Sequence record: MN850566.1
DNA length: 64,000 nucleotides
From: Escherichia phage garuso
Reading direction: 5' to 3' (one strand)
A program made the position numbers and the translations under genes. Positions 7,068 through 28,800 of the stretch are shown here, piece by piece. Every line of letters begins with the position of its first letter. Position 1 is the first letter of the stretch. Under the pieces are notes generated by a model. The model ran no database searches, was not told where the DNA came from, and saw only the letters and a list, made by a program, of their open reading frames with translations.

Positions 7068-7363
7068 GTAAAACAATTCGAAGAAAAGGTTTAAAGAACG
7101 TTCATGGACTTTATGAGTGGAGAAATGAGGTACGTAACAGAGAAAATGCTTCAGAGGTCTACTACCACTCTGATATGATGTCTAGAAAAGGTGGCTCTTA
7201 CGACTTCACAAGCCAGCCTTGTAGAGAGATTAAGAAGGCTACTAAACGTCTTACAAGAACACAAATAAGGCAGCTTTCTAAGACATCCTACTTAGATGAA
7301 GACTTTGACATTGATAGCAAGTCTCCAAAGAAAGCTGCTCAGAGCACTTATATGTATTGGTGA
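7064..7363 (+). CDS. Hypothetical protein (99 aa)
   Basis: Track ORF; overlapping start/stop with neighbour. Confidence 0.45.
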   Translation: MSKTIRRKGLKNVHGLYEWRNEVRNRENASEVYYHSDMMSRKGGSYDFTSQPCREIKKATKRLTRTQIRQLSKTSYLDEDFDIDSKSPKKAAQSTYMYW

Positions 7364-7372
7364 GGTAACTAG

Positions 7373-7858
7373 ATGAATTACATGGAGATTCGACCATTTG
7401 ATACAGCTAATGGTGAAGGGGTTCGTGTAAGCCTCTTCGTAGCTGGCTGTAAACATCACTGTGAAGGCTGCTTTAACAGGGAGTCTTGGAAGTTTAATGC
7501 TGGTAAAGTGTTCACTTATGCAAACCTCTACGGCATCATTAAGTTAATGGATGATGATGCTGTCAGTGGGCTGTCAATACTTGGTGGAGAACCTCTGGAT
7601 GATAGAAATATTCAAGAGGTTACCAACATATGCAAACGTATTAAAACCGTTTACCCAGAAAAATCTATCTGGCTCTGGACAGGTTTTCAGTTACACGAAA
7701 AAATTCACCTAGATGTGATGAAATATGTTGACGTGGTGATTGATGGTAAGTATGATTCATCTAAACCAACAGTTAAACCATATCGTGGTTCTGATAACCA
7801 AAACCTCTGGAGAAAAGAGTATGGATGGCAAGGCGATTGTCAATGGCGAGCAGAGTGA
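7373..7858 (+). CDS. nrdG: Anaerobic RNR activating enzyme (radical SAM)
   Basis: 161-aa ORF with CxxxCxxC cluster (VAGCKHHCEGCFN) typical of glycyl-radical activases; downstream of nrdD. Confidence 0.8.
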   Translation: MNYMEIRPFDTANGEGVRVSLFVAGCKHHCEGCFNRESWKFNAGKVFTYANLYGIIKLMDDDAVSGLSILGGEPLDDRNIQEVTNICKRIKTVYPEKSIWLWTGFQLHEKIHLDVMKYVDVVIDGKYDSSKPTVKPYRGSDNQNLWRKEYGWQGDCQWRAE

Positions 7859-8712: not shown

Positions 8713-8741
8713 AGGGAACTGTAAAGGTTCCCTTTTTATTT
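8713..8741 (+). terminator. Intrinsic terminator
   Basis: GGGAAC-TGTAAAG-GTTCCC hairpin followed by TTTTTATTTT. Confidence 0.65.
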
Positions 8742-10431: not shown

Positions 10432-10476
10432 AACTTTATAGGGGCTTGAAAGCCCCACTTTGAGAGAGATTAAAAG

Positions 10477-15200: not shown

Positions 15201-15279
15201 AGTGTTTGACAAGGGGCTTCGAAGCCCCTTAGAATAGCCTTACAAAATGATTTATTAACTAACAAGAGAGAGTAATAAG

Positions 15280-19739: not shown

Positions 19740-20525
19740 ATGGGTATTGTAAAAATCATCAATGGTGATATCTTTGCTGCATTTGATAAAGGTAAGTTTG
19801 ACATCATTGGTCATGGTTGTAACTGTATGAACCTAATGGGTGCAGGTATCGCTGATAAGATTTCTAAACTTTACCCAAAAGCATATGAGACCGATACAGA
19901 AGTTTATCTATATGCAGGCGGTATAGGCCACAAACCCTGTGAAAATTTACTAGGTAACTTCTCTGTAGCACGTTTAAAACAAGGCCGTATAGCTAACCTT
20001 TACACTCAGCTTAAGACTGGTAAAGATGCCCGATACAGTGCTTTAGAGTCATCTTTGAAACAGCTTAACAGATACTGTGAAGTCAATCAGTTGAAGAAAG
20101 TCGGGTTACCTATGATTGGTGCAGGTATCGGTGGGCTAGACGCTCAAGCCGTCACAGTTATCATTAATCAGGTGATGAAGAGTGTAGATGTGTATCTGTA
20201 TGTCTATGAAGGAGAGATGTACCACAAGTTACGCTCAGGTTGGAAGAACTACTGTGAACCAGAATACTTTGCAGGTGTAGTAACGTTCACAGACAATACA
20301 GTTACCCTCTTCAGACGAAGAAAAGGTAAGATACATCAAAGTAACCCTCCGGTTGAAAAGATGTCTCTAAGTAACGCTCTAGTTACCCACCTGTCGAAGA
20401 GCAATCACAGGATTGCAGTAACATTTGGTAGTGATGCAGACACTTATATCTATGCAAGAACTGATGAGGGTATCGAGACAGTTTTCTCTTCGCCAGAAGT
20501 TACCTTCTTAGACGCAAAGAACTAA
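19740..20525 (+). CDS. Macro-domain (ADP-ribose binding/processing) protein
   Basis: 261-aa ORF; N-terminal half has macro-like glycine-rich motifs (…IIGHGCNCMNLMGAGIADKI… and …GLPMIGAGIGGLD…). Confidence 0.55.
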   Translation: MGIVKIINGDIFAAFDKGKFDIIGHGCNCMNLMGAGIADKISKLYPKAYETDTEVYLYAGGIGHKPCENLLGNFSVARLKQGRIANLYTQLKTGKDARYSALESSLKQLNRYCEVNQLKKVGLPMIGAGIGGLDAQAVTVIINQVMKSVDVYLYVYEGEMYHKLRSGWKNYCEPEYFAGVVTFTDNTVTLFRRRKGKIHQSNPPVEKMSLSNALVTHLSKSNHRIAVTFGSDADTYIYARTDEGIETVFSSPEVTFLDAKN

Positions 20526-20595
20526 GAAACTCTGTAGAGTATTCACAATAAACTAAGCCTTTCTTATCTGGTAAATTTTTCAGGTAAGGAGGGCT

Positions 20596-20794
20596 TTTTC
20601 ATTTCAGAATTGTGCAGGTATATTTCTATAGAGAAATCTGTAGAGGAAATTTTGAACTCCAAAGAGAAAATTCATTTTCAAACTGTGCAGGTAATCTCCA
20701 AAGGGTTTTTTCATTTTCAAAACGTGCAGAGAAAAATCAGGTCGGGCAAGAAAAATCATTTTAGAATTGTGCAGGTAGGTGGGTGCAGGTGGGG
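20596..20794. repeat. Array of four to five direct repeats, consensus TTTTCATTT(T)CA(A/G)AA(C/T)TGTGCAGGTA
   Basis: Copies at about 20596-20620, 20668-20694, 20707-20730, 20753-20778 plus a partial GTGCAGGTGGGG at 20783-20794; lies between a terminator-like hairpin and the first early promoter. Confidence 0.6.
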
Positions 20795-20954
20795 ATGTCG
20801 CCATTTCTCACAAGGCTACCACATCTGGAAATAAAAGTCAACAGAAAAATTTGTAGCGGATTGAAAAATAATTCTTGATTGTAGTTCTGTTTTGTGGTAG
20901 TCGCGCGCACCCGTTTCATTACAATCTTTGCAAAAAATATTTTTAAAATTCCTA

Positions 20955-20983
20955 TTGACTCTTTGAGTATGGTTATCTAATAT
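20955..20983 (+). promoter_or_regulatory. Sigma70-like promoter at the start of the early-gene block
   Basis: TTGACT-N17-TAATAT with an AT-rich upstream tract. Confidence 0.5.
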
Positions 20984-21033
20984 TTGCATCAGACGGGCAA
21001 TCAAGCCCACTTCCTAAACTGGAGATTCAAAAA

Positions 21034-21222
21034 ATGGCATCAAGAAAGATTAAAGTTGGCGATGAGATTAACATCAAGCACGAACACTCTTACAAAATGC
21101 TAACTATACGCTCTTATAAGGTTTATCAGGTGGAAGCTATCCACAAAGATAACACTTTTTCCTTAAAAGGTTATAGCGAACGTTTCCCTGCTGAACTCTT
21201 TGAGAAATGGAGCGCGAAATAA
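21034..21222 (+). CDS. Small early-region protein (62 aa)
   Basis: Preceded by TTGACT-N17-TAATAT promoter (20955-20983) and …ctaaactggagattcaaaaaATG RBS. Confidence 0.5.
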   Translation: MASRKIKVGDEINIKHEHSYKMLTIRSYKVYQVEAIHKDNTFSLKGYSERFPAELFEKWSAK

Positions 21223-21428
21223 TGCTTTACAGTCGTAAATTGATGGTTACAACTAACGTTAACACAAAGGTAAAACGTTTTTACATGCAAATTTGTGGCG
21301 TATGGTCTAGAATATCAGAGGCTGACTATTGCAACTATGTAGAAACAGCTATAAACTCTAATTGCTACCTTACAAGAAATACTAAGAATTTTACAAGGCA
21401 AACAGTGATTTACTATTACGATAAATAA
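21222..21428 (+). CDS. Small early-region protein (68 aa)
   Basis: ATG 21222 overlapping upstream stop (TAATG); track ORF starts at 21207. Confidence 0.4.
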   Translation: MLYSRKLMVTTNVNTKVKRFYMQICGVWSRISEADYCNYVETAINSNCYLTRNTKNFTRQTVIYYYDK

Positions 21429-21429
21429 A

Positions 21430-21515
21430 AAGTACTTTACATGGGGCTTAAAAGTCTGTAGAGTAAGCCCCAGATAAAGAGCTTTACCAACAACCTTAAA
21501 CTAGGAGATTCAAAA
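21430..21515 (+). repeat. Family-1 promoter/hairpin/RBS cassette, copy 1
   Basis: aagtacTTTACA-[GGGGCTTA…TAAGCCCC hairpin spanning the spacer and -10]-cagataaagagctttacc…cctaaactaggagattcaaaaATG; reads as TTTACA-N17-TAGAGT. Confidence 0.6.
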
Positions 21516-21899
21516 ATGGCTTATCGTGCACCGAAATTCATCAACAAAGACAACTTTCGCAAAGTACTGGAGAAGTCACTTGATGAGAATTTTAAAGGCA
21601 ACATTATTGTTGTTCACTCGTTTAATTTCAAGTATGATATCAACGGGAATAAAATCAACCATTACACGGCGACAATGCTAGATGGTACTCTTTCAAGTGA
21701 AAAAGCCATTTTACATGCACTTGCTGGACGTGGTAAAAACCTGATAAAATGCGATAAGAGACGTTATCAGGGTGGCGCATATGGTTATGATGATGCTGTT
21801 TATCATCTTGAAAATATGGGCTATAAAGTAGAAAAAGCTGGGGTATCGCAAATCATCGGGAGCGATGGTTATGTAACAATCTTCAAAATTAACGAATAA
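21516..21899 (+). CDS. Small early-region protein (127 aa)
   Basis: Preceded by family-1 promoter/hairpin/RBS cassette. Confidence 0.5.
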   Translation: MAYRAPKFINKDNFRKVLEKSLDENFKGNIIVVHSFNFKYDINGNKINHYTATMLDGTLSSEKAILHALAGRGKNLIKCDKRRYQGGAYGYDDAVYHLENMGYKVEKAGVSQIIGSDGYVTIFKINE

Positions 21900-21985
21900 A
21901 GTACTTTACAAGGGGCTTATAGTTCGATAAAGTAAGCCCCAGATAAAGAGCTTTACCACTAAATCCTAAATTGGAGAACTTAAAA
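21899..21985 (+). repeat. Family-1 cassette, copy 2
   Basis: Same architecture; -10 TAAAGT. Confidence 0.6.
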
Positions 21986-22243
21986 ATGGCTATTATCAAA
22001 AACGTTGTAATTACCGCAAAGACTCGTGATGACGCTCGTATCATGGCTAAAAAGTTATGCGGAAAAGTGGTTGACAACGGAAAACAATCTGCTGTAAGGT
22101 GGGGCGTGAAGGTTGATAAACAGTTAACTTTAAAACGCAGTTCAAACAACCTTTTTAAAGGTGTAAAAACACTCGGTAAAGTGAACGTGTTCACTAAACA
22201 AGGTTACAAAATGCACTTATCTTTAACTGGCAATTTAATCTGA
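21986..22243 (+). CDS. Small early-region protein (85 aa)
   Basis: ATG 21986 placed by the conserved cassette RBS (…ttggagaacttaaaaATG); track ORF starts at 21971. Confidence 0.5.
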   Translation: MAIIKNVVITAKTRDDARIMAKKLCGKVVDNGKQSAVRWGVKVDKQLTLKRSSNNLFKGVKTLGKVNVFTKQGYKMHLSLTGNLI

Positions 22244-22244
22244 T

Positions 22245-22331
22245 AAAGTACTTTACATGGGGTTTAAAAGTTGATATCTTAAGCCCCAGATAAAGAGCTT
22301 TACCACTAAATCCTAAACTGGAGATTCAAAA
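22245..22331 (+). repeat. Family-1 cassette, copy 3
   Basis: Same architecture; -10 TATCTT. Confidence 0.6.
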
Positions 22332-22844
22332 ATGAAAACTGTAGACGCTACTTTTGAAGTTGTAAAAGAAAAATTCACCATTATCTATGAAGCGGTAAAT
22401 TGCTACGAAGCAAGCCATAACCTTGATAATTGGAAGTTTACAGATGACCATCAAGGCGGCGTGACTGTTAAAAATCCTAACTATCAGCATAATGCATTTA
22501 AATATGCAATCCCTTTGCATTACAGCCTTAAACAGCTTTCAAGTGACTATGCAAAACAAGGCCGGGAAAATCCATCAAAAGAGGCTTACATCAGCTTACA
22601 AAAAGAACTAGAAAGAGATTTAGAAGCTTCAGAGTATAACATTGCCGCGAAAGTTGTAGATGCAAACGGTAAAACGGTTTTAGACAGCTTTTATATTGGT
22701 TACGCTTTCGATTGGTGCTATAGTGACGGTGAGGATTTAGAAGATAGACTAAAAGAAGAGGTGAACAATTCAGACGCAGAAACTGAAGTATTAGAACGTT
22801 TGGAATCGTTGAAAGACTCAGTGATGAATATCTTTAAGAACTAA
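22332..22844 (+). CDS. Small early-region protein (170 aa)
   Basis: Preceded by family-1 cassette. Confidence 0.5.
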   Translation: MKTVDATFEVVKEKFTIIYEAVNCYEASHNLDNWKFTDDHQGGVTVKNPNYQHNAFKYAIPLHYSLKQLSSDYAKQGRENPSKEAYISLQKELERDLEASEYNIAAKVVDANGKTVLDSFYIGYAFDWCYSDGEDLEDRLKEEVNNSDAETEVLERLESLKDSVMNIFKN

Positions 22845-22846
22845 AT

Positions 22847-22936
22847 AGATTTCTTTACACGGGGTTATCAAGCTGGTAAGATAGCCCCAGATAAAGAGAT
22901 TTATCAAATAAAGCCCTTAAACTAGGAGATTCTAAA
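22847..22936 (+). repeat. Family-1 cassette, copy 4 (divergent)
   Basis: Same architecture with more substitutions. Confidence 0.5.
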
Positions 22937-23233
22937 ATGAAATTATCAAATCAAGTGCGTGAAAATCTGAGCAAATTACTCAACAAAATTGATTTTATCG
23001 AGACATCAAGAAATAATCATGATGTTATGGAATGGTTGCACGGCAAAATAAAAGGCCGTCGCGTAGTGATTTGCTTATGGAATAGTTGCAGGGAGTATAA
23101 AAAACCTGTATTGCAAGTAAATATTTATGATGATACTTTTAAAAGTCCAGTAAAGTCTAAAAGTGACTTATTAGAATCTTATGAGATAACTGTAAGTGGC
23201 AAAGTATCACGTAAAGAGGAAACACCATGTTAA
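22937..23233 (+). CDS. Small early-region protein (98 aa)
   Basis: Preceded by family-1 cassette variant. Confidence 0.5.
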   Translation: MKLSNQVRENLSKLLNKIDFIETSRNNHDVMEWLHGKIKGRRVVICLWNSCREYKKPVLQVNIYDDTFKSPVKSKSDLLESYEITVSGKVSRKEETPC

Positions 23234-23559
23234 TGACTGGTATCACTGCAATCATTGCCATTTTCGCGCTATATAAGGCATATAAAGCCTATAATCTAGC
23301 AAATAAGGCAATCACGCAACAGGTTAGCAATAACCTTGTAGAAAGCTTTCTAGGACGTCTCAGTGATGAGCAAATAAAGCGGCTAGAGATGAGCTTCAGA
23401 TATAAAGCCAAAACCTATCAGATAAGTGACATCTTCAAAGATGATTTTCAGTTAGTTGATGATTATAATTCTCTGATAAATGCTTTAAACATCAGTGACT
23501 TGAAAGACTATCATGCTGTAATTGTTCAAGAGTTGAGCAAACGAAAACAAAATTCTTGA
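23227..23559 (+). CDS. Small early-region protein (110 aa)
   Basis: Track ORF; AGAGGA RBS; overlaps upstream gene by 7 nt. Confidence 0.45.
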   Translation: MLMTGITAIIAIFALYKAYKAYNLANKAITQQVSNNLVESFLGRLSDEQIKRLEMSFRYKAKTYQISDIFKDDFQLVDDYNSLINALNISDLKDYHAVIVQELSKRKQNS

Positions 23560-23647
23560 CACTGGTTTTTAGATAGATTAAATTACACATCAACGGGGAG
23601 GGAATGACCTTCCCCACTAAATAAAGTCCTAAACTGGAGATTCTAAA
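23556..23647 (+). repeat. Family-2 promoter/leader-hairpin/RBS cassette, copy 1
   Basis: TTGACA-N17-TAAATT, then leader hairpin GGGGAGGG-AATGA-CCTTCCCC, then actaaataaagtcctaaactggagattctaaaATG. Confidence 0.6.
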
Positions 23648-23920
23648 ATGTATACTACTAACAACGGTCGCACTTTAAATGTCACACTACGTCACTATGT
23701 AGATGGTGTCATGCACTTTGAAGACTTACAAGCTGAACAACATATCTTAGATTGGCAAGTCGCAGGACTCCAAAAAACTGCTACCGGATACGGTAAAAAG
23801 ATTCCAACCAGTTGGAAAGTACACTATGAAGGCCGTTTGCGCAGAATTTATCAGGATGTGCAAAGCAATAGTGCATCGAGTTACATTATAGTAAAAGGTA
23901 AAAAACTGCATTTAGTGTAA
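23648..23920 (+). CDS. Small early-region protein (90 aa)
   Basis: Preceded by family-2 cassette (promoter, GGGGAGGGAATGACCTTCCCC hairpin, RBS). Confidence 0.5.
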   Translation: MYTTNNGRTLNVTLRHYVDGVMHFEDLQAEQHILDWQVAGLQKTATGYGKKIPTSWKVHYEGRLRRIYQDVQSNSASSYIIVKGKKLHLV

Positions 23921-24005
23921 AGTACTTTACAGGGGGCTTATAGTTCGATAAAGTAAGCCCCAGATAAAGAGCTTTACCACTCAATCCTAAATTGGAGATT
24001 CTAAA
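23919..24005 (+). repeat. Family-1 cassette, copy 5
   Basis: Same architecture; nearly identical to copy 2. Confidence 0.6.
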
Positions 24006-24410
24006 ATGGCTATTAATAACCGTGAATTATCAATCTTAAAAGCACGCTTGACCGTTAATCGAATCAATATCATGACGTCATCAGCGCCTGATGAAACATT
24101 GCACAACATTATCGGAAAGATTCAAAGCGTTATCTTAGACGTTGAAAACGTAAAAAGTTCATTGGCTGACGTTGCAGCAGGTATCACGCTAGACGGTGCG
24201 CAATATGAAATGGCTGACATGTTAGGCAAATCGAAGGTAATGAATAAAGAGCTTGATTTAAAAATGTTTCGATTTGCCGTGAAAGTATGGTTATCTGTCG
24301 AGTATGACGCTAATTTTGCAATCGCTGATTTCTTTGCCACTTGGTTACAACGTAATTTGACAAATCATGATTTTCGTGATGTCTGTGATGCAATTTATGC
24401 AGAACTCTAA
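24006..24410 (+). CDS. Small early-region protein (134 aa)
   Basis: Preceded by family-1 cassette. Confidence 0.5.
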   Translation: MAINNRELSILKARLTVNRINIMTSSAPDETLHNIIGKIQSVILDVENVKSSLADVAAGITLDGAQYEMADMLGKSKVMNKELDLKMFRFAVKVWLSVEYDANFAIADFFATWLQRNLTNHDFRDVCDAIYAEL

Positions 24411-24418
24411 AAATTTTG

Positions 24419-24511
24419 TTGACACTGGTTTTTAGATAGATTAAATTACACATCAACGGGGAGGGAATGACCTTCCCCACTAAATAAAGTCCTAAACTGG
24501 AGATTCTAAAA
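24419..24511 (+). repeat. Family-2 cassette, copy 2
   Basis: Near-identical to copy 1. Confidence 0.6.
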
Positions 24512-24715
24512 ATGGCTATTATTAACGGCTTAACCATTGAAACTACACACATCAAAGATATTAAAGTTGGTGATATAGTCCTTTCCCACGGCGTAGAAAA
24601 AACTGTCACTGCAAAGGATATCAAAGAGGATTCTTTCATGGGTAGGACTCTCTTCGGTGATTCTTATTGCTTAGGTTATCTTGCAGTTTTAAAAGTTGTC
24701 AAAAATAACAAATAA
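24512..24715 (+). CDS. Small early-region protein (67 aa)
   Basis: Preceded by family-2 cassette. Confidence 0.45.
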   Translation: MAIINGLTIETTHIKDIKVGDIVLSHGVEKTVTAKDIKEDSFMGRTLFGDSYCLGYLAVLKVVKNNK

Positions 24716-24801
24716 AGTACTTTACAGGGGGCTTGGAAGTTGATATCTTAAGCCCCAGATAAAGAGCTTTACCACTAAATCCTAAACTGGAGATTCAAAA
24801 A
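24714..24801 (+). repeat. Family-1 cassette, copy 6
   Basis: Same architecture. Confidence 0.6.
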
Positions 24802-25344
24802 ATGAAATGCTTTCACGGTACTACTCAAGAAAACTTTATCAACCTGATTAATAATGGTGATAAGCCATCAGGTGCATGGAATTGTTCGGATATGGATGGC
24901 AATTTTTACGTATACCCAGAAAATAAAATCTATGGTGACGATGAGGAAGAGATAGTATCCGAAGGTATTCAACAGGCGTTAGGAAATGCCACTATCACGG
25001 CAGCTTTCCAGATGAAAACCCAAAACATTGTTATCTTGGAACTTGATATTCCAGAGGACGAATTAAATGATGATTATTCTTGTGATAATATGTCTGGCGT
25101 AGCAAGTTTTACAGAATACTTCGATTTAAATTGGATTAAAAAGGTTTACGTAACCGAGTTTAATGCGATGTTTTCGCCTTTTTGTCTTCCTTCATTGGAT
25201 AACCCAAATTTAAACTATCTTGATGAGTCTCTGGAGCTTCTTGCTAAAAGCGTTCAACAGTCGGACAGTATTCAGGTTTTTTGTGACATCATGGATACAC
25301 TGGCAGGAAACATCGCAGAAGAGGATTTAAAGAGCTTTTTTTAA
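24802..25344 (+). CDS. Small early-region acidic protein (180 aa)
   Basis: Preceded by family-1 cassette. Confidence 0.5.
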   Translation: MKCFHGTTQENFINLINNGDKPSGAWNCSDMDGNFYVYPENKIYGDDEEEIVSEGIQQALGNATITAAFQMKTQNIVILELDIPEDELNDDYSCDNMSGVASFTEYFDLNWIKKVYVTEFNAMFSPFCLPSLDNPNLNYLDESLELLAKSVQQSDSIQVFCDIMDTLAGNIAEEDLKSFF

Positions 25345-25410
25345 AAACCTATGCAATCACCTTATAAACACTAATCAGCCCCTTGTAGGGGCTTTTAGGG
25401 GGCTTAAATC

Positions 25411-25644
25411 ATGCTTACAACCGTTTACCTCATCCTTTCCATCTGTAATGGTCATTCATGCGATTTTAAAGGGCTTGAAGAGTTTACAGGAAGTAAAGAA
25501 AATGCTATTCAAGTTTGCCAGATAGCACGGCAAGACTATCCCGCAAGTGATGATATACAATGCTACTTTAAGACAGAAGATAAAGACGGCATCTATTTTG
25601 ACAGCGTTGACGGTCAATATGAAATTATCATTGAAAAAGACTAG
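25411..25644 (+). CDS. Small early-region protein (77 aa)
   Basis: Track ORF; AGGGGG RBS-like sequence upstream. Confidence 0.4.
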   Translation: MLTTVYLILSICNGHSCDFKGLEEFTGSKENAIQVCQIARQDYPASDDIQCYFKTEDKDGIYFDSVDGQYEIIIEKD

Positions 25645-25734
25645 ACAAGCCTGATAAAAGTCTGTAAATTGTCAATCAACGGGGAGGGAATGACCTTCCC
25701 CACTAAATGAAGTCCTAAACTGGAGATTCTAAAA
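25641..25734 (+). repeat. Family-2 cassette, copy 3
   Basis: TAGACA-N17-TAAATT with the same leader hairpin and RBS. Confidence 0.55.
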
Positions 25735-26076
25735 ATGGCTTATGTAACCGTAATTACCGATAAAGCTGGCGCATCTTGGTCAACTCAGGTTAGTGATAAG
25801 ATGTCGCCTATGCAGTGCCTAAAATACTTTGAACAGTGGAACAAAGGCGAGGACACAAGCCCCTTTCACGTAATGCAGATTATTCATGTAGACAATGAAG
25901 GGAAGAAAACAACTCTGAATAGTGAGTACTACGCAAGCCGTTTTGAAACGAGAAGTAAAGCAATGAAGCTCTTACGTGAGGCCGGATATGGTCACATTGC
26001 CGCGATAATCTGGGATGACCTTCTAAAAAGTCAACGTATCAGCTATGTAAAGCCTGAAAAAATATTCATCAGTTAA
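25735..26076 (+). CDS. Small early-region protein (113 aa)
   Basis: Preceded by family-2 cassette. Confidence 0.5.
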   Translation: MAYVTVITDKAGASWSTQVSDKMSPMQCLKYFEQWNKGEDTSPFHVMQIIHVDNEGKKTTLNSEYYASRFETRSKAMKLLREAGYGHIAAIIWDDLLKSQRISYVKPEKIFIS

Positions 26077-26204
26077 TCAATAACTTACAAAAAACTTTTA
26101 AAAAAGTGTTGACAATACCCCTTGACATTGGTAACTTTGTTCGAGGGGGTTTATCTAAAAGGGATTCACTTAAAAGATTCTTTATAGATAAGCTTAAAAA
26201 TTGC

Positions 26205-26295
26205 TTGCAATCAGCTATCAAAACAAGTAAATTACTAATCAACGGGAGGGATGACCTTCCCCACTAAATAAAATCCTTAAACTAGGAGAGTCAAA
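26205..26295 (+). repeat. Family-2 cassette, copy 4 (divergent)
   Basis: TTGCAA-N17-TAAATT with shortened hairpin GGGAGGG…CCTTCCCC and RBS …ctaggagagtcaaaATG. Confidence 0.5.
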
Positions 26296-26826
26296 ATGAA
26301 CAAGTTTAAAGCTATCAACTTCATTCGTTCAAATGCTGTAATGTCAAAACCTGTAAAAGACACATACGAATTTCGCTGCAATGGGGTACACTTTGCAACC
26401 ATCACTAAGTCAGAAAACGGGGCTTATTACATTCATCGCCGTAATGTTTCTACTGTTGTAGTCTCTCACTTTATGCAAGCTGTAGCGGAATTATTACCGT
26501 TATTCTTAGAGATTTACTTAGATGAGTGCAAAAACGTTCGTAACCACGTTAAAAACCTTTTAAACGGTTATAAAATGGCTTATGAACGTTCTATCAAGTC
26601 CTTAAACAAGTTTTATAAAGCCCCTGTAAATACTGTTTCAATGGCTTACAGTGTAAGCGGTGAGTTGGTTAGTCTCTTCGAAGTGGAAGAAATCGAACTA
26701 TATAACTCACGTCCTAGCGGTTACTCTAAGACACTAGGAGAGGGCTTATCTTTCAATATCAAGAACTTAGAAAAAACTTTAAAAGATATTGAAAAAGATA
26801 TTGACGAGACAATCAAAAGTCTGTAA
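26296..26826 (+). CDS. Small early-region protein (176 aa)
   Basis: Preceded by family-2 cassette variant. Confidence 0.5.
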   Translation: MNKFKAINFIRSNAVMSKPVKDTYEFRCNGVHFATITKSENGAYYIHRRNVSTVVVSHFMQAVAELLPLFLEIYLDECKNVRNHVKNLLNGYKMAYERSIKSLNKFYKAPVNTVSMAYSVSGELVSLFEVEEIELYNSRPSGYSKTLGEGLSFNIKNLEKTLKDIEKDIDETIKSL

Positions 26827-26905
26827 ATTGTCAATCAACGGGGAGGGAATGACCTTCCCCACTAAATAAAACCCTTAATCAACTTCCTAAACTGGAGATT
26901 CTAAA
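26801..26905 (+). repeat. Family-2 cassette, copy 5
   Basis: TTGACG-N17-TAAATT with the same leader hairpin and RBS. Confidence 0.55.
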
Positions 26906-27154
26906 ATGGCTACTATCCGCGCAACTGTTAACGAATTCGGCTTCTACTCTCTGGACGTTAAATTTGACCTTGTAGGTACTGATAACACCTTTGAAATGGT
27001 GAAAGGCCTTATCAGCCAGACCATCAGTGACTACAACCCCTCTGATGAATTCTGGAAAGAAACAAAACAGGAAGTTCTCAAAGAGGGTTATACATACCAC
27101 TACTGGGGTGAAAAAATTGTCTCCCTGTACTACGACAAAAAAGGCACTAACTAA
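26906..27154 (+). CDS. Small early-region protein (82 aa)
   Basis: Preceded by family-2 cassette; last + strand gene before the noncoding region; terminator at about 27193-27219. Confidence 0.5.
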   Translation: MATIRATVNEFGFYSLDVKFDLVGTDNTFEMVKGLISQTISDYNPSDEFWKETKQEVLKEGYTYHYWGEKIVSLYYDKKGTN

Positions 27155-27192
27155 ACGCCGCAACGGGGCTAAATAGCCCCAGATACCTTTAC

Positions 27193-27219
27193 AGCCCCTT
27201 TCCCATAGGGGCTTTTTTA
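27193..27219 (+). terminator. Intrinsic terminator ending the + strand early-gene block
   Basis: AGCCCC-TTTCCCAT-AGGGGCT hairpin followed by TTTTTT; a second GC hairpin (GGGGCTAAATAGCCCC) lies just upstream. Confidence 0.6.
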
Positions 27220-27224
27220 CGTCT

Positions 27225-28790
27225 TATCAAATCCCTTATACAACCCTTTCCCTTTCCTTTCCAGAATCTTATCAGACCTTAAAAAGCAATAACTCTATAG
27301 TCTACTCTATAGCCTTTTATCAAATCAACTTAAATATAAGCCCATAACCCGAAAGGGAAGGGCAACCGTTTAAACGCTCTATAAAGCTCTATAACAGCCT
27401 TATCAACCTAACTTAAGGGATTGCATTAACTCACCCTAAAAAGCCCTTTATAAAGCTTCCCAGAGACTTAAAAGAATCTTATAAGGGTGTAAGCTTTATC
27501 ATCTCGTTAGCTATCTTGTGAACTACTAAACAAGCCCCTTGATAGTAACTGAAAAGTATGTTATAGGGGCTTTAAAGTTACTTTGAAGTAGCTTAAAAGT
27601 TACGTAAATGCTAGCCCCCTTAACATTTTCTTAACAATTTCTTAACAATCCCTACATAGTTATGCTTTTAAGACACTTGTTAGCAACTTGTTAGCCCCTT
27701 GTTAAATCTCTGTTAAGACCACGTAAAAGCCTTGTAAGAACCTTTGACATAGCCTTAAAAGCTCCTGTAAAGCCCTATAAAGAGCTATCTGTACAGTTGG
27801 GGGGTAAATACTAGGAAGAGACTTAAAAGGGGTTATACAGAGCTATACAGAGCTTTTAAGAGGTATGTTTAAAGAATCACTAAGAAAGGAAAGGGAACGA
27901 TAAGAAAAGAGTAGTGACCATGTTAATAGCTTGTTAAAAAGATTAAACACTTGTTAGAGACTTGTTAATTATCTTAACAAAATAACTCTTAACATTTAAC
28001 TACTTAGCTCTTGTTAGTCATCTGTTAAGATTCTGTAAAGCCTATTCAGCACTTGTTAAGAAACTGTTACACCCTTGTTAGTTCTGTTAAGAAACTGTTA
28101 AGACCTTTGAAGAGTTGTTAAGAAGATGTGAGAACTGTTAAGAGATTGTTAAGGATATTTTAAAATTTTGCAAAGTACTTGTAAGGGAGCTGTTAAGGGC
28201 TACCAAGCAGATATACATCCTAGACAGATATTTTTCAGTTCCTTCAAAGACCCTAAAAAATGACTTGATAGTCCTATTTTATAAAAATTTTAAAATTCTG
28301 AATAATTACCTATACAGTCTTTTAAAAATACAGGTAGAAACAGGCTTATAAGATACCTTGTTAGTACCGTGTTAGACCTTGTGAGATAAGGTCTGTAAAG
28401 ATATTCCTGTTAAGTTTGTTAAAACAGTCTATATAGAGGCTTAGTAATACCTAGTGAACACCTATAGAGGGTATCATAGCTAACCTAGAGATTAAGAGGT
28501 GTATAGGAGCTTCTAAGAGGGTATAGAGAGATGGTTAAGGTGATTGTATAGGTTGTTTAGAAGGCTTGTTAGAAGAGTGTTTAGAAGGGCTATACAGAGG
28601 GGCTATTAAGACCACTAGATAGTTACTAAGATACTATATAGTACTATATAACTATATAGAGAGTAAGATTAAGAAGGTTGTTAAGAAGGATGTTAAGAAG
28701 GATAGATATTTTATTCACATATGATGGTGACCCAGAGGTTGGGACAACCGATGAAATTTTATAAAAATTAAAAAGCCCCCAACTAAGGAG
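27225..28790. repeat. 1.6-kb ORF-free, repeat-dense region at a convergent junction
   Basis: No ORF of 60 aa or more on either strand; dozens of irregularly spaced copies of (C/T)TGTTA(A/G)(G/A) (CTTGTTAG, CTGTTAAG, GTTGTTAAGAAG), densest at 27650-28200 and 28350-28720, plus CTATATAG/ACTATATA clusters at 28620-28660. Confidence 0.6.
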
Positions 28791-28800
28791 GCTCTTAAGA
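28770..28800 (-). terminator. Intrinsic terminator ending the minus-strand block
   Basis: Minus-strand reading gives GAGCCTCC-TTAGTTG-GGGGCT hairpin followed by a T-rich run. Confidence 0.45.

Follow-up and report, generated by a model that had tools for sequence, protein, structure and literature searches.

The question raised by this locus is why a run of small phage genes should be separated by repeated elements that combine a promoter-like sequence with a GC-rich hairpin, and what these elements could do. The stretch of DNA analysed (64 kb, hereafter the window) comes from a Felixounavirus and shares 96% identity with Escherichia phage allfine; all elements described below lie on its + strand. 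The analysis indicates that the block 20955-27213 (~6 kb) is probably made up of a series of PeSL-type (promoter-early stem-loop) units, each of which is self-contained and serves to express one gene.

Anatomy of the block and of its cassettes

The block lies between two intrinsic terminators that are present in the Felix O1 list of PMC3185647, namely t13 upstream (20555..20596; a 17-bp stem then TTTTCATTT) and t23, which closes it (27193..27213; AGCCCCTTTCCCATAGGGGCT then TTTTTT). Between them, 12 of the 15 small genes have a cassette in front of them, and all 12 cassettes share the same anatomy: sigma-70-like -35 and -10 hexamers separated by 17 bp, together with a GC-rich hairpin and, as ribosome-binding site, GGAG. 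An earlier note on this DNA had described two repeated families, which were confirmed with 6 and 5 copies, and had counted 11 genes with a cassette; those 11 stand, and a twelfth cassette (20955-21033, TTGACT-N17-TAATAT) was found just outside the start that it had given to the block. The note had also given a single form of the ribosome-binding site: the GGAG site is indeed common to all cassettes, but it occurs in three variants (CCTAAACTGGAG, CCTAAATTGGAG and CCTTAAACTAGGAG). Outside the block, the cassette motifs are absent from the rest of the 64-kb window. A chance origin of these motifs is excluded, with 9 matches to the 16-mer ribosome-binding site motif (0.49 expected), 7 occurrences of GCCCCAGATAAAGAG (1.3 expected) and 8 of GACCTTCCCCACTAAAT (0.11 expected), and in each case none of 100 shuffles reaching as high.

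Family 1 comprises six cassettes, before the ATGs at 21516, 21986, 22332, 22937, 24006 and 24802. Every copy carries TTTACA, a 17-nt spacer and TAnnnT; the TAnAnT previously given for the -10 was too narrow, as TATCTT and TAAGAT occur. A hairpin, GGGG(C/T)TTA...TAAGCCCC, covers the spacer together with the final base(s) of the -10 and the 6-7 nt that follow. This hairpin forms just the inner portion of a far longer structure that the note had missed, an interrupted helix of ~20 bp around the whole promoter, in which a 3x3 internal loop separates an outer stem of 11 bp from an inner stem of 9 bp; the helix starts 0-3 nt past the upstream stop codon. The promoter being engulfed by its own helix, only read-through RNA contains the full helix. 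A covariance model of the family finds exactly six strong + strand matches in the 64 kb (69-93 bits, versus 20-37 bits on the antisense strand), and the folds range from -24 to -28 kcal/mol (z -3.1 to -4.6). In brief, these cassettes include: 21426..21515 (-35 TTTACA 21436-21441, -10 TAGAGT 21459-21464, inner hairpin 21443-21471, Shine-Dalgarno (SD) 21504-21507; 85 bits, -24.4 kcal/mol, z -3.9); 21897..21985 (-35 21905-21910, -10 TAAAGT 21928-21933, inner hairpin 21912-21940, SD 21973-21976; 90 bits, -24.2 kcal/mol, z -4.6); 22241..22331 (-35 22252-22257, -10 TATCTT 22275-22280, inner hairpin 22259-22287 with U·G at pair 5, SD 22320-22323; 93 bits, -25.7 kcal/mol, z -4.1); 22842..22936 (-35 22854-22859, -10 TAAGAT 22877-22882, inner hairpin GGGGTTATC..GATAGCCCC 22861-22888, a 13-bp outer helix, SD 22925-22928; 69 bits, -27.6 kcal/mol, z -4.4), both helices of which are set apart from the other copies by compensatory changes; 23918..24005 (-35 23926-23931, -10 TAAAGT 23949-23954, inner hairpin 23933-23961, SD 23994-23997; 86 bits); and 24713..24801 (-35 24721-24726, -10 TATCTT 24744-24749, inner hairpin 24728-24756, SD 24789-24792; 89 bits).

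Family 2 comprises five cassettes, before the ATGs at 23648, 24512, 25735, 26296 and 26906, each with a -35, a 17-nt spacer and TAAATT, as claimed; the TTGACA that had been attributed to the whole family is found in only two of the five (others TAGACA, TTGCAA and TTGACG). The hairpin, GGGGAGGG-AAUGA-CCUUCCCC, has its first base 10 nt past the -10, and the folds have z of about -2 to -2.7. The copies are located at 23556..23647 (-35 TTGACA 23556-23561, -10 23579-23584, leader hairpin 23595-23615, SD 23636-23639), at 24419..24511 (-35 TTGACA 24419-24424, -10 24442-24447, leader hairpin 24458-24478, SD 24499-24502; 96% identical to the copy at 23546-23648), at 25642..25734 (-35 TAGACA 25642-25647, -10 25665-25670, leader hairpin 25681-25701, SD 25722-25725), at 26205..26295 (-35 TTGCAA 26205-26210, -10 26228-26233, leader hairpin GGGAGGGATGACCTTCCC(C) 26244-26262, SD 26285-26288) and at 26801..26905 (-35 TTGACG 26801-26806, -10 26824-26829, leader hairpin 26840-26860, SD 26894-26897). 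The last of these has a chimeric leader, and at its site relatives carry an additional gene (n7) with a second cassette. The twelfth cassette (20955..21033, family-2b, before ATG 21034) has its -35 TTGACT at 20955-20960, its -10 TAATAT at 20978-20983, the hairpin GGGCAATCAAGCCC at 20995-21008 and the SD GGAG at 21021-21024; in relatives, the same gene has this promoter in combination with the GGGGAGGG hairpin.

Two further hairpins were noted. A promoter-less one (GGGGCTAAATAGCCCC then AGATA, 27165..27180), located 10 nt past the stop codon that ends the block's last gene and conserved in L009 and L057, could be either a cassette remnant or a 3' hairpin. Outside the block, between rIIA and rIIB, a related promoter-hairpin composite (15206..15240; TAAAGTGT-TTGACA-a-GGGGCTTCGAAGCCCC-t-TAGAAT) has its hairpin entirely within the spacer and matches the family-1 covariance model weakly (22 bits, E 0.015).

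Conservation and rearrangement among relatives

About 300 more cassette copies were taken from relatives, and their conservation pattern is of the promoter type. The family-1 -35 is TTTACA in 158 of 158 copies; in the -10, T, A and the final T are kept and the three middle bases comprise all four nucleotides. In the family-1 fold, the unpaired bases that never vary (CA of the internal loop, TA of the apical loop and, at the predicted +1, AGA) fall on positions critical to a promoter. The 75 unique family-2 promoters fall into at least 6 unrelated sequence classes, whose sole common features are the hexamers, the 17 bp between these and their distance from the hairpin; in 74 of the 75, the hairpin lies exactly 10 nt from the end of the -10. 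A promoter was found in 316 of 318 unique regions with a cassette-type ribosome-binding site. This conservation demonstrates selection on the promoter bases and bears out the earlier reading of the cassettes as predicted promoters; counting against it, the hexamers are ordinary (8-10/12) and no better than many other sites of the window. No transcript data were found for any Felixounavirus in the searchable literature.

The hairpins are conserved as pairings. RNAalifold recovers the same family-1 structure with 19 pairs, and in 113 distinct sequences pairing is kept in 98.0% of cells (91.4±0.3 when shuffled) and 139 cells show two-sided changes (26.8±3.9 when shuffled), with 0/500 shuffles as high in either case; this covariation rests on 5 of 20 pairs, much of the stem being invariant, and comes from related sequences, in which a single substitution, once spread by recombination, is counted repeatedly. 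Slid registers, used as a control, give 33-56% pairing. In the family-1 copies of relatives, the non-Watson-Crick pairs are G·T in 28 cases and A·C in 1, and the Kolesnikvirus stem has GGUG...CACC where others have GGGG...CCCC. The 55 distinct leader hairpins belong to several unrelated classes, including some with GNRA loops, all at +10/+11. Because compensatory and G·U changes are abundant, the comparison demonstrates selection of the hairpins as + strand RNA, in line with the RNA-level role proposed earlier. A stable leader hairpin is absent from 17 of the 318 cassettes and is thus dispensable at some genes.

The cassettes are also associated with rearrangement breakpoints, in line with the recombinational shuffling proposed earlier. 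Indeed, 67 of the 88 HSP ends (76%) that mark breaks of collinearity with relatives fall inside cassettes, which make up 20% of the block, as do 23 of the 38 distinct breakpoints (p=8e-8); part of this enrichment is to be anticipated, since any replaced cassette makes BLAST alignments stop at its edges. Gene-order maps reveal that whole single-gene units have been gained, deleted, replaced, duplicated and translocated among relatives, and at 5 slots the cassette in front of a given gene switches between family 1 and family 2 from one phage to another. Every part of the earlier interpretation that sequence comparison can address is thus supported. No function could be assigned to any of the 15 proteins of the block, for which the note had suggested host-takeover or anti-defence roles.

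Proposed function and alternative readings

From these features we infer initiation at the cassettes, early timing and a biochemical role for each hairpin. A cassette would act first as a host sigma-70 promoter, with a C-A start dinucleotide 7-8 nt past the -10, followed by a short A-rich leader whose GGAG Shine-Dalgarno precedes the ATG by 7-9 nt. Since each cassette holds a complete sigma-70 promoter, leader and Shine-Dalgarno, host RNA polymerase could express the small genes independently; the phage itself has no gene for an RNA polymerase. In RT-PCR of Felix O1, ORFs 16, 20, 21 and 22 were highest at 5 min; counting against early timing, the block ORFs 14, 17, 19 and 23 were highest at 25 min. 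The family-2 hairpin, located 10-11 nt past the -10 and ~2-4 nt from the predicted 5' end, would form a 5'-terminal stem-loop on its own mRNA and may shield it against 5'-end-dependent decay; in read-through RNA it would also lie at the 3' side of the upstream cistron. The family-1 promoter lies within a 60-nt inverted repeat, of which a transcript begun there would hold only the 3' half. Read-through RNA from the unit upstream would form the helix of ~20 bp that begins at the upstream stop codon, a putative boundary element for the upstream cistron that could serve as a 3'-exonuclease barrier, an attenuator or a double-strand-specific nuclease site. As direct repeats of 60-100 nt every 300-600 bp, the cassettes are probably also the preferred crossover points for single gene units, which are thereby deleted, duplicated, replaced or moved.

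That the hairpins are mainly transcription terminators or attenuators insulating the units, as in the original PeSL view, rather than stability or processing elements, is considered rather unlikely. The isolated stem-loop of an RB49 PeSL lowered lacZ expression as much as rrnB T1 did (PMC2839356), the position of the family-1 helix next to the upstream stop codon would suit such a role, and the last gene of the block also has a hairpin behind it (27165-27180). However, a T-run follows none of the 12 cassette hairpins and is present at the true terminators of the same genome, and the family-2 hairpin keeps its distance to the -10, not to the upstream stop codon. Moreover, the selected family-1 helix can form in read-through RNA only, which implies that read-through happens.

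It appears highly improbable that the cassettes are not promoters and that one polycistronic transcript comes from the promoter at ~20955, the repeats being processing, stability or translation elements and the hexamers incidental. The weak family-1 hexamers (TTTACA and TAnnnT, 8-9/12), the need of the outer RNA helix for part of the -35, and the fact that every relative examined opens the block with a family-2-type cassette would fit such a transcript. Against it, the RNA-unpaired CA of TTTACA and TA of the -10 are (nearly) invariant while adjoining loop bases are free, the family-2 promoter regions are unrelated but for the hexamers and their exact 17-bp spacing, and RB49 elements of the same layout have measured promoter activity. 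Inverted repeats acting as DNA, either as operators bound by a dimeric repressor (of phage or host) that shuts off early promoters or as cruciforms, are hardly credible. The repeats do lie across spacer, -10 and start site, the classical operator position, and the family-1 flanks are conserved across genera; nevertheless, T stands opposite G at pair 5 in 47 of 113 distinct copies and U·G occurs in the outer helix in 106 of 113, pairs that break DNA symmetry and are neutral in + strand RNA. Different stems occur within one genome, the loop varies in sequence and length, the antisense model scores much lower, and the hairpins found at one and the same place in family 2 are unrelated in sequence.

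Comparison with known systems

The preferred reading, an array of single-gene expression units, has its closest counterpart in the PeSLs known from the T4-type phages RB49/phi1, T4/PST and KVP40/nt-1 (Arbiol et al. 2010, PMC2839356, which also discusses morons; Comeau et al. 2014, PMC4122927). The cassettes match them, which the note had not recognised, and appear to be the same kind of element in another phage subfamily. Indeed (i) the order of parts is the same, with an upstream stop codon in an A/T-rich stretch, sigma-70-like -35 and -10, stem-loop, Shine-Dalgarno and ATG, (ii) a GGGG...CCCC stem-loop with G·U pairs lies in the spacer, over the -10 or just past it, and (iii) the repeats stand before small genes without known function, in a plastic region where indels between close relatives are bounded by the elements. 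RB49 PeSLs read from the genome have the same layout and a nearly identical ribosome-binding site tail (GGAGAATCAAAAATG, versus GGAGA(A/T)TC(A/T)AAAATG here), and a PeSL-like architecture recurs in Mooglevirus, Kolesnikvirus and one Vequintavirinae phage. By contrast, the host phage here belongs to the Ounavirinae and not to the Straboviridae, family 1 adds an 11-bp outer helix where the folded RB49 examples have only a short stem, and family 2 holds its hairpin at a fixed +10/+11 in the transcribed leader. Between the block and the RB49 region, no genes in common were found. Whereas the cassettes described here are predicted from sequence, RB49/phi1 has demonstrated promoter and terminator activity as well as mini-circle formation.

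The RNase III sites of the T7 early region (R0.3-R1.3) are intercistronic and consist of an upper stem, an internal loop and a lower stem. The family-1 helix resembles them in its intercistronic position, its length of about two helical turns and its internal loop between two stems of ~10 bp, and by its predicted geometry a cut 3' of the loop would give the upstream message a 3'-terminal hairpin; it differs in containing a promoter. Stabilising 5'-terminal stem-loops occur in the E. coli ompA 5' UTR and the T7 phi10 leader. Family 2 likewise has a GC-rich hairpin a few nt from its 5' end, then an unstructured A-rich leader and a Shine-Dalgarno, although here this 5' end is predicted and some cassettes (17/318) have no such hairpin. 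Morons of lambdoid phages are promoter-gene-terminator units, and the SPO1 host-takeover module can be compared likewise; all are autonomous small expression units with accessory genes that are added or removed singly. Morons are inserted by illegitimate recombination and have true terminators, whereas the cassettes carry hairpins without U-tracts and provide homology as shared linker repeats.

Cassette architecture of the small-gene block

The phage is a Felix O1-like myovirus of the genus Felixounavirus, and the presence of 25 tRNA genes at 38-43.5 kb is in keeping with a Felixounavirus-type group. The segment 21000-27400 shares 96% identity with Escherichia phage allfine over its full length, and 256 phage records match it. 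The block also occurs, at 92% identity, in record GU169904 ('Staphylococcus phage SA1', 147 kb); this record is probably mixed or chimeric, and a staphylococcal phage with these genes is less likely.

The block is composed of 15 small + strand genes, named here by their ATG coordinates, and is enclosed by two intrinsic terminators with U-tracts, at 20555-20596 (5' edge) and 27193-27213 (3' edge), which correspond to t13 and t23 of Felix O1 (PMC3185647). Further U-tract terminators are found in the window at 8714 and 54523. All 15 block proteins matched only families of unknown function in PHROGs and Pfam scans. The Felix O1 genome paper lists 57-bp and 39-bp repeats as direct repeats, without interpretation, and describes temporal regulation in this phage as unknown (PMC3185647). 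Two family-2 promoters are annotated in GenBank record AYO145A, and RT-PCR on Felix O1 gave peaks at 5 min for the block ORFs 16, 20, 21 and 22 but at 25 min for 14, 17, 19 and 23. No transcriptome, transcript mapping or promoter study of a Felixounavirus was found in the searchable literature.

The two families of repeated cassettes (promoter, hairpin and GGAG ribosome-binding site ahead of a small gene) were confirmed where the earlier note had placed them. Its count of 11 cassette-bearing genes among the 15 rises to 12: the 11 stand, and a cassette at 20955-21033, assigned to a family 2b, had been missed. This twelfth cassette carries TTGACT-N17-TAATAT, the hairpin GGGCAATCAAGCCC and the same ribosome-binding site as the others. 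The core cassette motifs are far commoner than in shuffled sequences and are absent from the rest of the 64 kb. In all 12 cassettes the -35 and -10 are 17 bp apart, a GC-rich hairpin is present, and GGAG is located 7-9 nt 5' of the ATG. In family 1, the TAA of the upstream gene lies within (A)TAAAGTAC, directly 5' of TTTACA, and the hairpin covers the spacer, the -10 hexamer and the discriminator. In family 2, AAAAATTTTG or AAAAAATTGC, an A/T-rich stretch with an upstream stop codon, precedes the -35 hexamer, and the hairpin lies 10 nt 3' of the -10. Among the three genes without a cassette, 21207 and 23227 overlap the 3' end of the preceding gene, and 25411 comes after a separate hairpin.

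Several non-coding elements were observed in and around the block. Between t13 and the first cassette promoter (20590-20774) there are four copies of TTCATTTTCAAAnTGTGCAG; this four-fold repeat is kept in an Erwinia Kolesnikvirus (L060, 9330-9470) and therefore probably serves as an array of binding sites ahead of the block. In the long spacer that separates genes 25735 and 26296 there is an extra conserved element of about 100 nt (26100-26200), with tandem TTGACA boxes, one of them followed by TAACTT at 17 nt, and two hairpins (fold of 26077-26215, -32.5 kcal/mol). It is conserved in two of the related loci (L009 and L057) and in Mooglevirus, is annotated as a promoter in AYO145A, and may represent a small RNA or an additional regulatory site. 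Directly 3' of the block terminator, about 1.6 kb (27214-28800) are free of ORFs and hold at least 25 copies of a motif of about 9 nt (CTTGTTAG / CTGTTAAGA) at spacings of 11 and 31 nt, in reversed orientation at 27617-27660 and 28020-28160. Phage Bas63 (JohannRWettstein), in which the same block makes up genes 98-111, has the same gene-free gap (70492-72155). This region may be an origin, a packaging region or a protein-binding array.

Promoter conservation and gene turnover among relatives

IMG/VR was scanned twice with exact patterns anchored outside the cassette stems, which retrieved 56 loci on about 30 Felix-like contigs; these loci and the window yielded 158 family-1 and 127 family-2 instances. 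The cassette-type ribosome-binding site defined 318 unique upstream regions: 145 of family 1, 154 with a promoter and a leader hairpin, 17 with a promoter but without a stable hairpin, and 2 without a recognisable promoter. A promoter was thus recognisable in 316 of the 318. The family-1 -35 hexamer TTTACA is invariant (158/158 copies), and the hexamer at 17-nt spacing reads T-A-n-n-n-T in 53 of 59 unique sequences, with all four bases used at the three middle positions; the remainder have an 18-nt spacer. Furthermore, the CA of TTTACA, the TA of the -10 and the AGA at the predicted start are unpaired in the family-1 fold yet conserved, which promoter function explains and RNA pairing cannot. 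At least six classes of unrelated sequence make up the 75 unique family-2 promoter regions, with TTGACA, TTGCAA, TTGATT, TAGACA, TTGACG or TTGACT as -35 and TAAATT, TAAAGT, TAGTAT or TAATAT as -10. They have only the hexamers and the spacer in common, the latter being 17 bp in 72 of 75. This conservation of promoter type in both families bears out, as far as sequence goes, the reading of the cassettes as promoters. The idea that these are exceptionally strong promoters was dropped, since the hexamer scores are ordinary (8-10 of 12), and for the same reason promoter strength cannot be judged.

The same elements are present in Mooglevirus (Citrobacter phage BSwM KMM4) and in Kolesnikvirus (Erwinia phage vEam_PM_27, compared by eye). 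In the latter, the inner stem is GGUG...CACC and the family-1 flanks are kept, although identity in the neighbouring macro-domain protein is down to 43%. Conservation of the family-1 element extends to at least three genera of Ounavirinae. Variant layouts also occur, with the hairpin entirely inside the spacer or with stems flanking the -10. Outside the block, a promoter between rIIA and rIIB (15206-15240, TTGACA-N18-TAGAAT) has a spacer hairpin (15213-15228) with the stem GGGGCTT..AAGCCCC, and the same stem forms a promoter-less intercistronic hairpin at 10441-10456.

The suggestion that cassettes favour recombinational shuffling is upheld by breakpoints that concentrate in the cassettes and by gene changes that proceed unit by unit. 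Indeed, gene-order maps of 27 long loci show that synteny is kept, with gain, loss, duplication and translocation of single units: (i) gene 21986 is missing in three loci, (ii) gene 24512 is replaced by an unrelated gene in four loci, or is absent, (iii) eight loci have an additional cassette-bearing gene between 26296 and 26906, (iv) other insertions precede 23648, 24512 and 25735, and (v) gene 21034 occupies a different slot in locus L003. When the window was compared with the 27 loci, 67 of 88 breaks in BLAST collinearity fell in cassettes, which cover 20% of the block; counted as distinct positions, 23 of 38 breakpoints did so (binomial p=8e-8). In five slots, the cassette of one and the same gene belongs to family 1 in some phages and to family 2 in others; otherwise, cassettes are inherited along with the downstream gene. 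Concerted evolution within genomes was also considered as a source of the similarity between copies. It was rejected, because similarity is higher between genomes at one slot than between slots of one genome (0.82 vs 0.74 in family 1, 0.79 vs 0.51 in family 2), so that there is no strong homogenisation in a genome.

In L003 (IMG/VR UViG 2974556886, ~7090-7778 on the reverse complement), the homologue of gene 21986 is duplicated exactly in tandem, and an 'empty' cassette stands between the duplicates, its ATG running directly into the -35 that follows (...AAAATG|CTTTACATGGGG). Another contig has a comparable junction of family 2 (...AAAATG|TTTGGTTTTAAAAGC...). These junctions are either scars of cassette-to-cassette recombination or assembly artefacts. 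The 'empty' tandem cassettes and the L003 duplication may point, indirectly, to mini-circle formation between neighbouring elements.

RNA structures of the two hairpin classes

Folding of the full intergenic regions revealed a larger structure around the GGGG...CCCC hairpin of family 1, which makes up just its inner part; in this structure UAAAGU.ACUUUA pairs with UAAAG.AGCUUUA. The 5' flank includes the upstream stop codon and most of the -35, and the 3' flank lies at +3 to +15 of the cassette's own predicted transcript. The resulting 11-bp outer helix, 3x3 internal loop and 9-bp inner helix fold at -24.2 to -27.6 kcal/mol (z -3.1 to -4.6), and RNAalifold yields the same 19 pairs. A MAFFT alignment of the hairpin alone puts a 1-nt length difference in the 3' arm, which would artificially break pairs; a gap-free seed, a covariance model built from it and a model-guided alignment were used instead. 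The model recovered 133 sense-strand copies of family 1 in 32 sources. Over 113 distinct sequences, 98.0% of cells are paired (91.4±0.3 with shuffled partners) and 139 cells show changes on both sides (26.8±3.9 when shuffled); none of 500 shuffles reached either observed value, and slid registers gave 33-56% pairing. Five pairs covary, one in the outer helix (GC/UA) and the others in the inner helix (UA/AU, AU/UA, AU/UG/CG/UA and CG/UG/UA).

What kind of signal these hairpins constitute was weighed among several possibilities. A palindromic DNA operator was rejected: read on the + strand, the family-1 mismatches are G·U in 28 cases and A·C in one, and the covariance model scores the antisense strand at 20-37 bits vs 69-93 bits for the sense strand, so the selected object is a + strand RNA and not a DNA palindrome. 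With this pairing, covariation and strand bias, the proposal that the hairpins are RNA-level elements holds in family 1. A reading as intrinsic terminators was likewise rejected, as the U-tract is missing: the tails are AGATAAAGAG (family 1) and ACTAAATAAA (family 2), and 8-nt stretches with 5 or more T follow the terminators at 20555, 27193, 8714 and 54523 but none of the 12 cassette hairpins. Hairpin promoters of the N4 type, DNA hairpins of 5-7 bp with a 3-nt loop used by a virion RNA polymerase, disagree with the loops of 4-13 nt seen here, with the ordinary sigma-70 hexamers and with the fact that Felix O1 encodes no RNA polymerase (PMC3185647). Rfam 15 covariance models gave no match at E <= 1 in 20000-28500 on either strand.

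Within the reading as RNA elements, the predicted start of family 1 (the A after CCCC) is 3' of the inner hairpin, so that only RNA coming from upstream can form the structure. The roughly 20 bp of coaxial, intercistronic double-stranded RNA, often split by an internal loop, that characterise RNase III sites of the T7 early type occur in family 1 only (11 + 9 bp, 3x3 loop), the family-2 stem being only 6-8 bp. It is conceivable, though rather unlikely, that family 1 is a dual-use signal, acting as a sigma-70 promoter in DNA and as an RNase III-type substrate in read-through RNA. In such a mechanism, the same 60 nt of read-through RNA would fold into two stems of about 10 bp around the internal loop, and cleavage within the 3' strand of the loop, CCCC^AGA^UAAAG (CCCC^AGAUAAAG), would create a 5' end nearly identical to that made by initiation at the embedded promoter. 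Each gene would then yield a uniform monocistronic mRNA, whether its RNA had started locally or upstream, and the upstream message would retain a protective 3' hairpin.

The family-2 leader folds only into its hairpin (-15 to -19.5 kcal/mol). Across relatives, 55 distinct leader hairpins were found, several of whose stem classes are unrelated: GGGGAGGG/CCUUCCCC, GGGGAGG-GAGA or GAAA-CUUCCCC with GNRA loops, GGGC-AAGCAA-GCCC, GGGGC-AAGAUAGAA-GCCCC and GGGGAAG-AAAUCA-CUUCCCC. In 137 cassettes the hairpin begins 10 nt past the -10 and in 13 it begins 11 nt past it, together 150 of 154. If transcription starts at the conserved C-A found 7-8 nt beyond the -10, the hairpin would lie 2-4 unpaired nt from the 5' end. 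In ompA, a stem-loop near the 5' end protects the mRNA from 5'-end-dependent decay; by analogy, the family-2 hairpin would occupy a protective 5' position.

Two further observations concern the cassettes and their surroundings. In all cassettes, a pyrimidine run complementary to the SD sequence lies 5-6 nt upstream of it (e.g. 21013-21024, 22918-22928). The combinations seen are CC-UAAAYU-GG (n=242) and CCU-UAAAYU-AGG (n=117), with a single insertion alone in 0 of 359, and CCUU-AUA-AAGG and CCUC-AAA-GAGG in Kolesnikvirus. A covarying mini-hairpin of 3-4 bp occluding the SD is possible, and simple linkage could alternatively account for these forms. Cleavage at the GGAG sites by a nuclease resembling T4 RegB is a further conceivable possibility. 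Immediately 5' of the block, the product of the gene at 19740-20525 is a macro-domain protein (Pfam PF01661, E 1.5e-7; PHROG 'phosphatase'). Among its homologues in phages, some bear the annotation 'RNase III inhibitor', after E. coli YmdB, which is curious beside the RNase III-like geometry of the family-1 RNA.

Comparison with promoter-early stem-loops

The observation of the earlier note is real, and its interpretation is supported to the extent that sequence can support it. The direct repeats of Felix O1, previously only listed, are now interpreted, and 12 transcription start sites and two RNA hairpin classes with differing roles are predicted. The cassettes mark entry and exit points of accessory genes, possibly anti-defence genes, and as compact, apparently insulated expression units they could serve phage engineering.

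Promoter-early stem-loops (PeSLs) of T4-type phages are defined by a sigma-70 early promoter, an A/T-rich upstream stretch with an upstream stop codon, an SD sequence with ATG, and a polyG/polyC stem-loop in or beside the promoter; they cluster among ORFans in hyperplastic regions and bound the indels of close relatives (PMC2839356, PMC4122927). The defining examples were located in the RB49 genome sequence, and their layout is the same as that of the window cassettes, down to nearly identical ribosome-binding tails (GGAGAATCAAAAATG in RB49, GGAGA(A/T)TC(A/T)AAAATG in the window). Every sequence-testable PeSL feature was found in the block: a sigma-70-type promoter, whose spacer (16-18 bp in the PeSL definition) is 17 bp in all 12 cassettes, an A/T-rich upstream stretch with a stop codon in both families, a stable polyG...polyC stem-loop with G·U pairs, which PeSLs have inside the spacer, across either hexamer or closely behind the -10 and which here overlaps spacer and -10 (family 1) or follows the -10 (family 2), an SD and start codon at the 3' end of the element (12/12), and a plastic region of small genes with indels bounded by the elements. 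On these sequence features, the cassettes are of PeSL type. What is new in detail is that the helix of family 1 engulfs its promoter and that the leader hairpin of family 2 keeps a fixed position. With the block proteins as queries, tblastn found no significant match in 40 kb of RB49, and no application of the PeSL concept to the Felix O1 subfamily was found in the literature searched.

There are block genes with homologues in unrelated phages. The 180-aa protein encoded at 24802-25344 has homologues in Pakpunavirus and in Vibrio and Pectobacterium phages, and is a homologue of Bas63 gp107, which a preprint reports to be more important on E. coli S17-1 and to resemble weakly, in structure, the NAD-binding domain of RNA 2'-phosphotransferase (10.1101/2024.10.10.617714). 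Cronobacter phage CR8 (Vequintavirinae; NC_024354, 82329-84935) encodes a small-gene array including a homologue of gene 23648, in which TTGAC(A/G/C) and a TATAAT-like box, with a GC-rich hairpin in the spacer between them, stand ahead of most genes. Among large enterobacterial myoviruses, cassettes of PeSL type therefore seem to be widespread. The PeSL idea is extended beyond T4-type phages to the Felix O1 subfamily, widely used in Salmonella and E. coli typing and biocontrol. This suggests that PeSL-type cassettes, in which accessory-gene turnover is coupled to regulatory sequences that are portable, represent a design general to large virulent myoviruses of enterobacteria.
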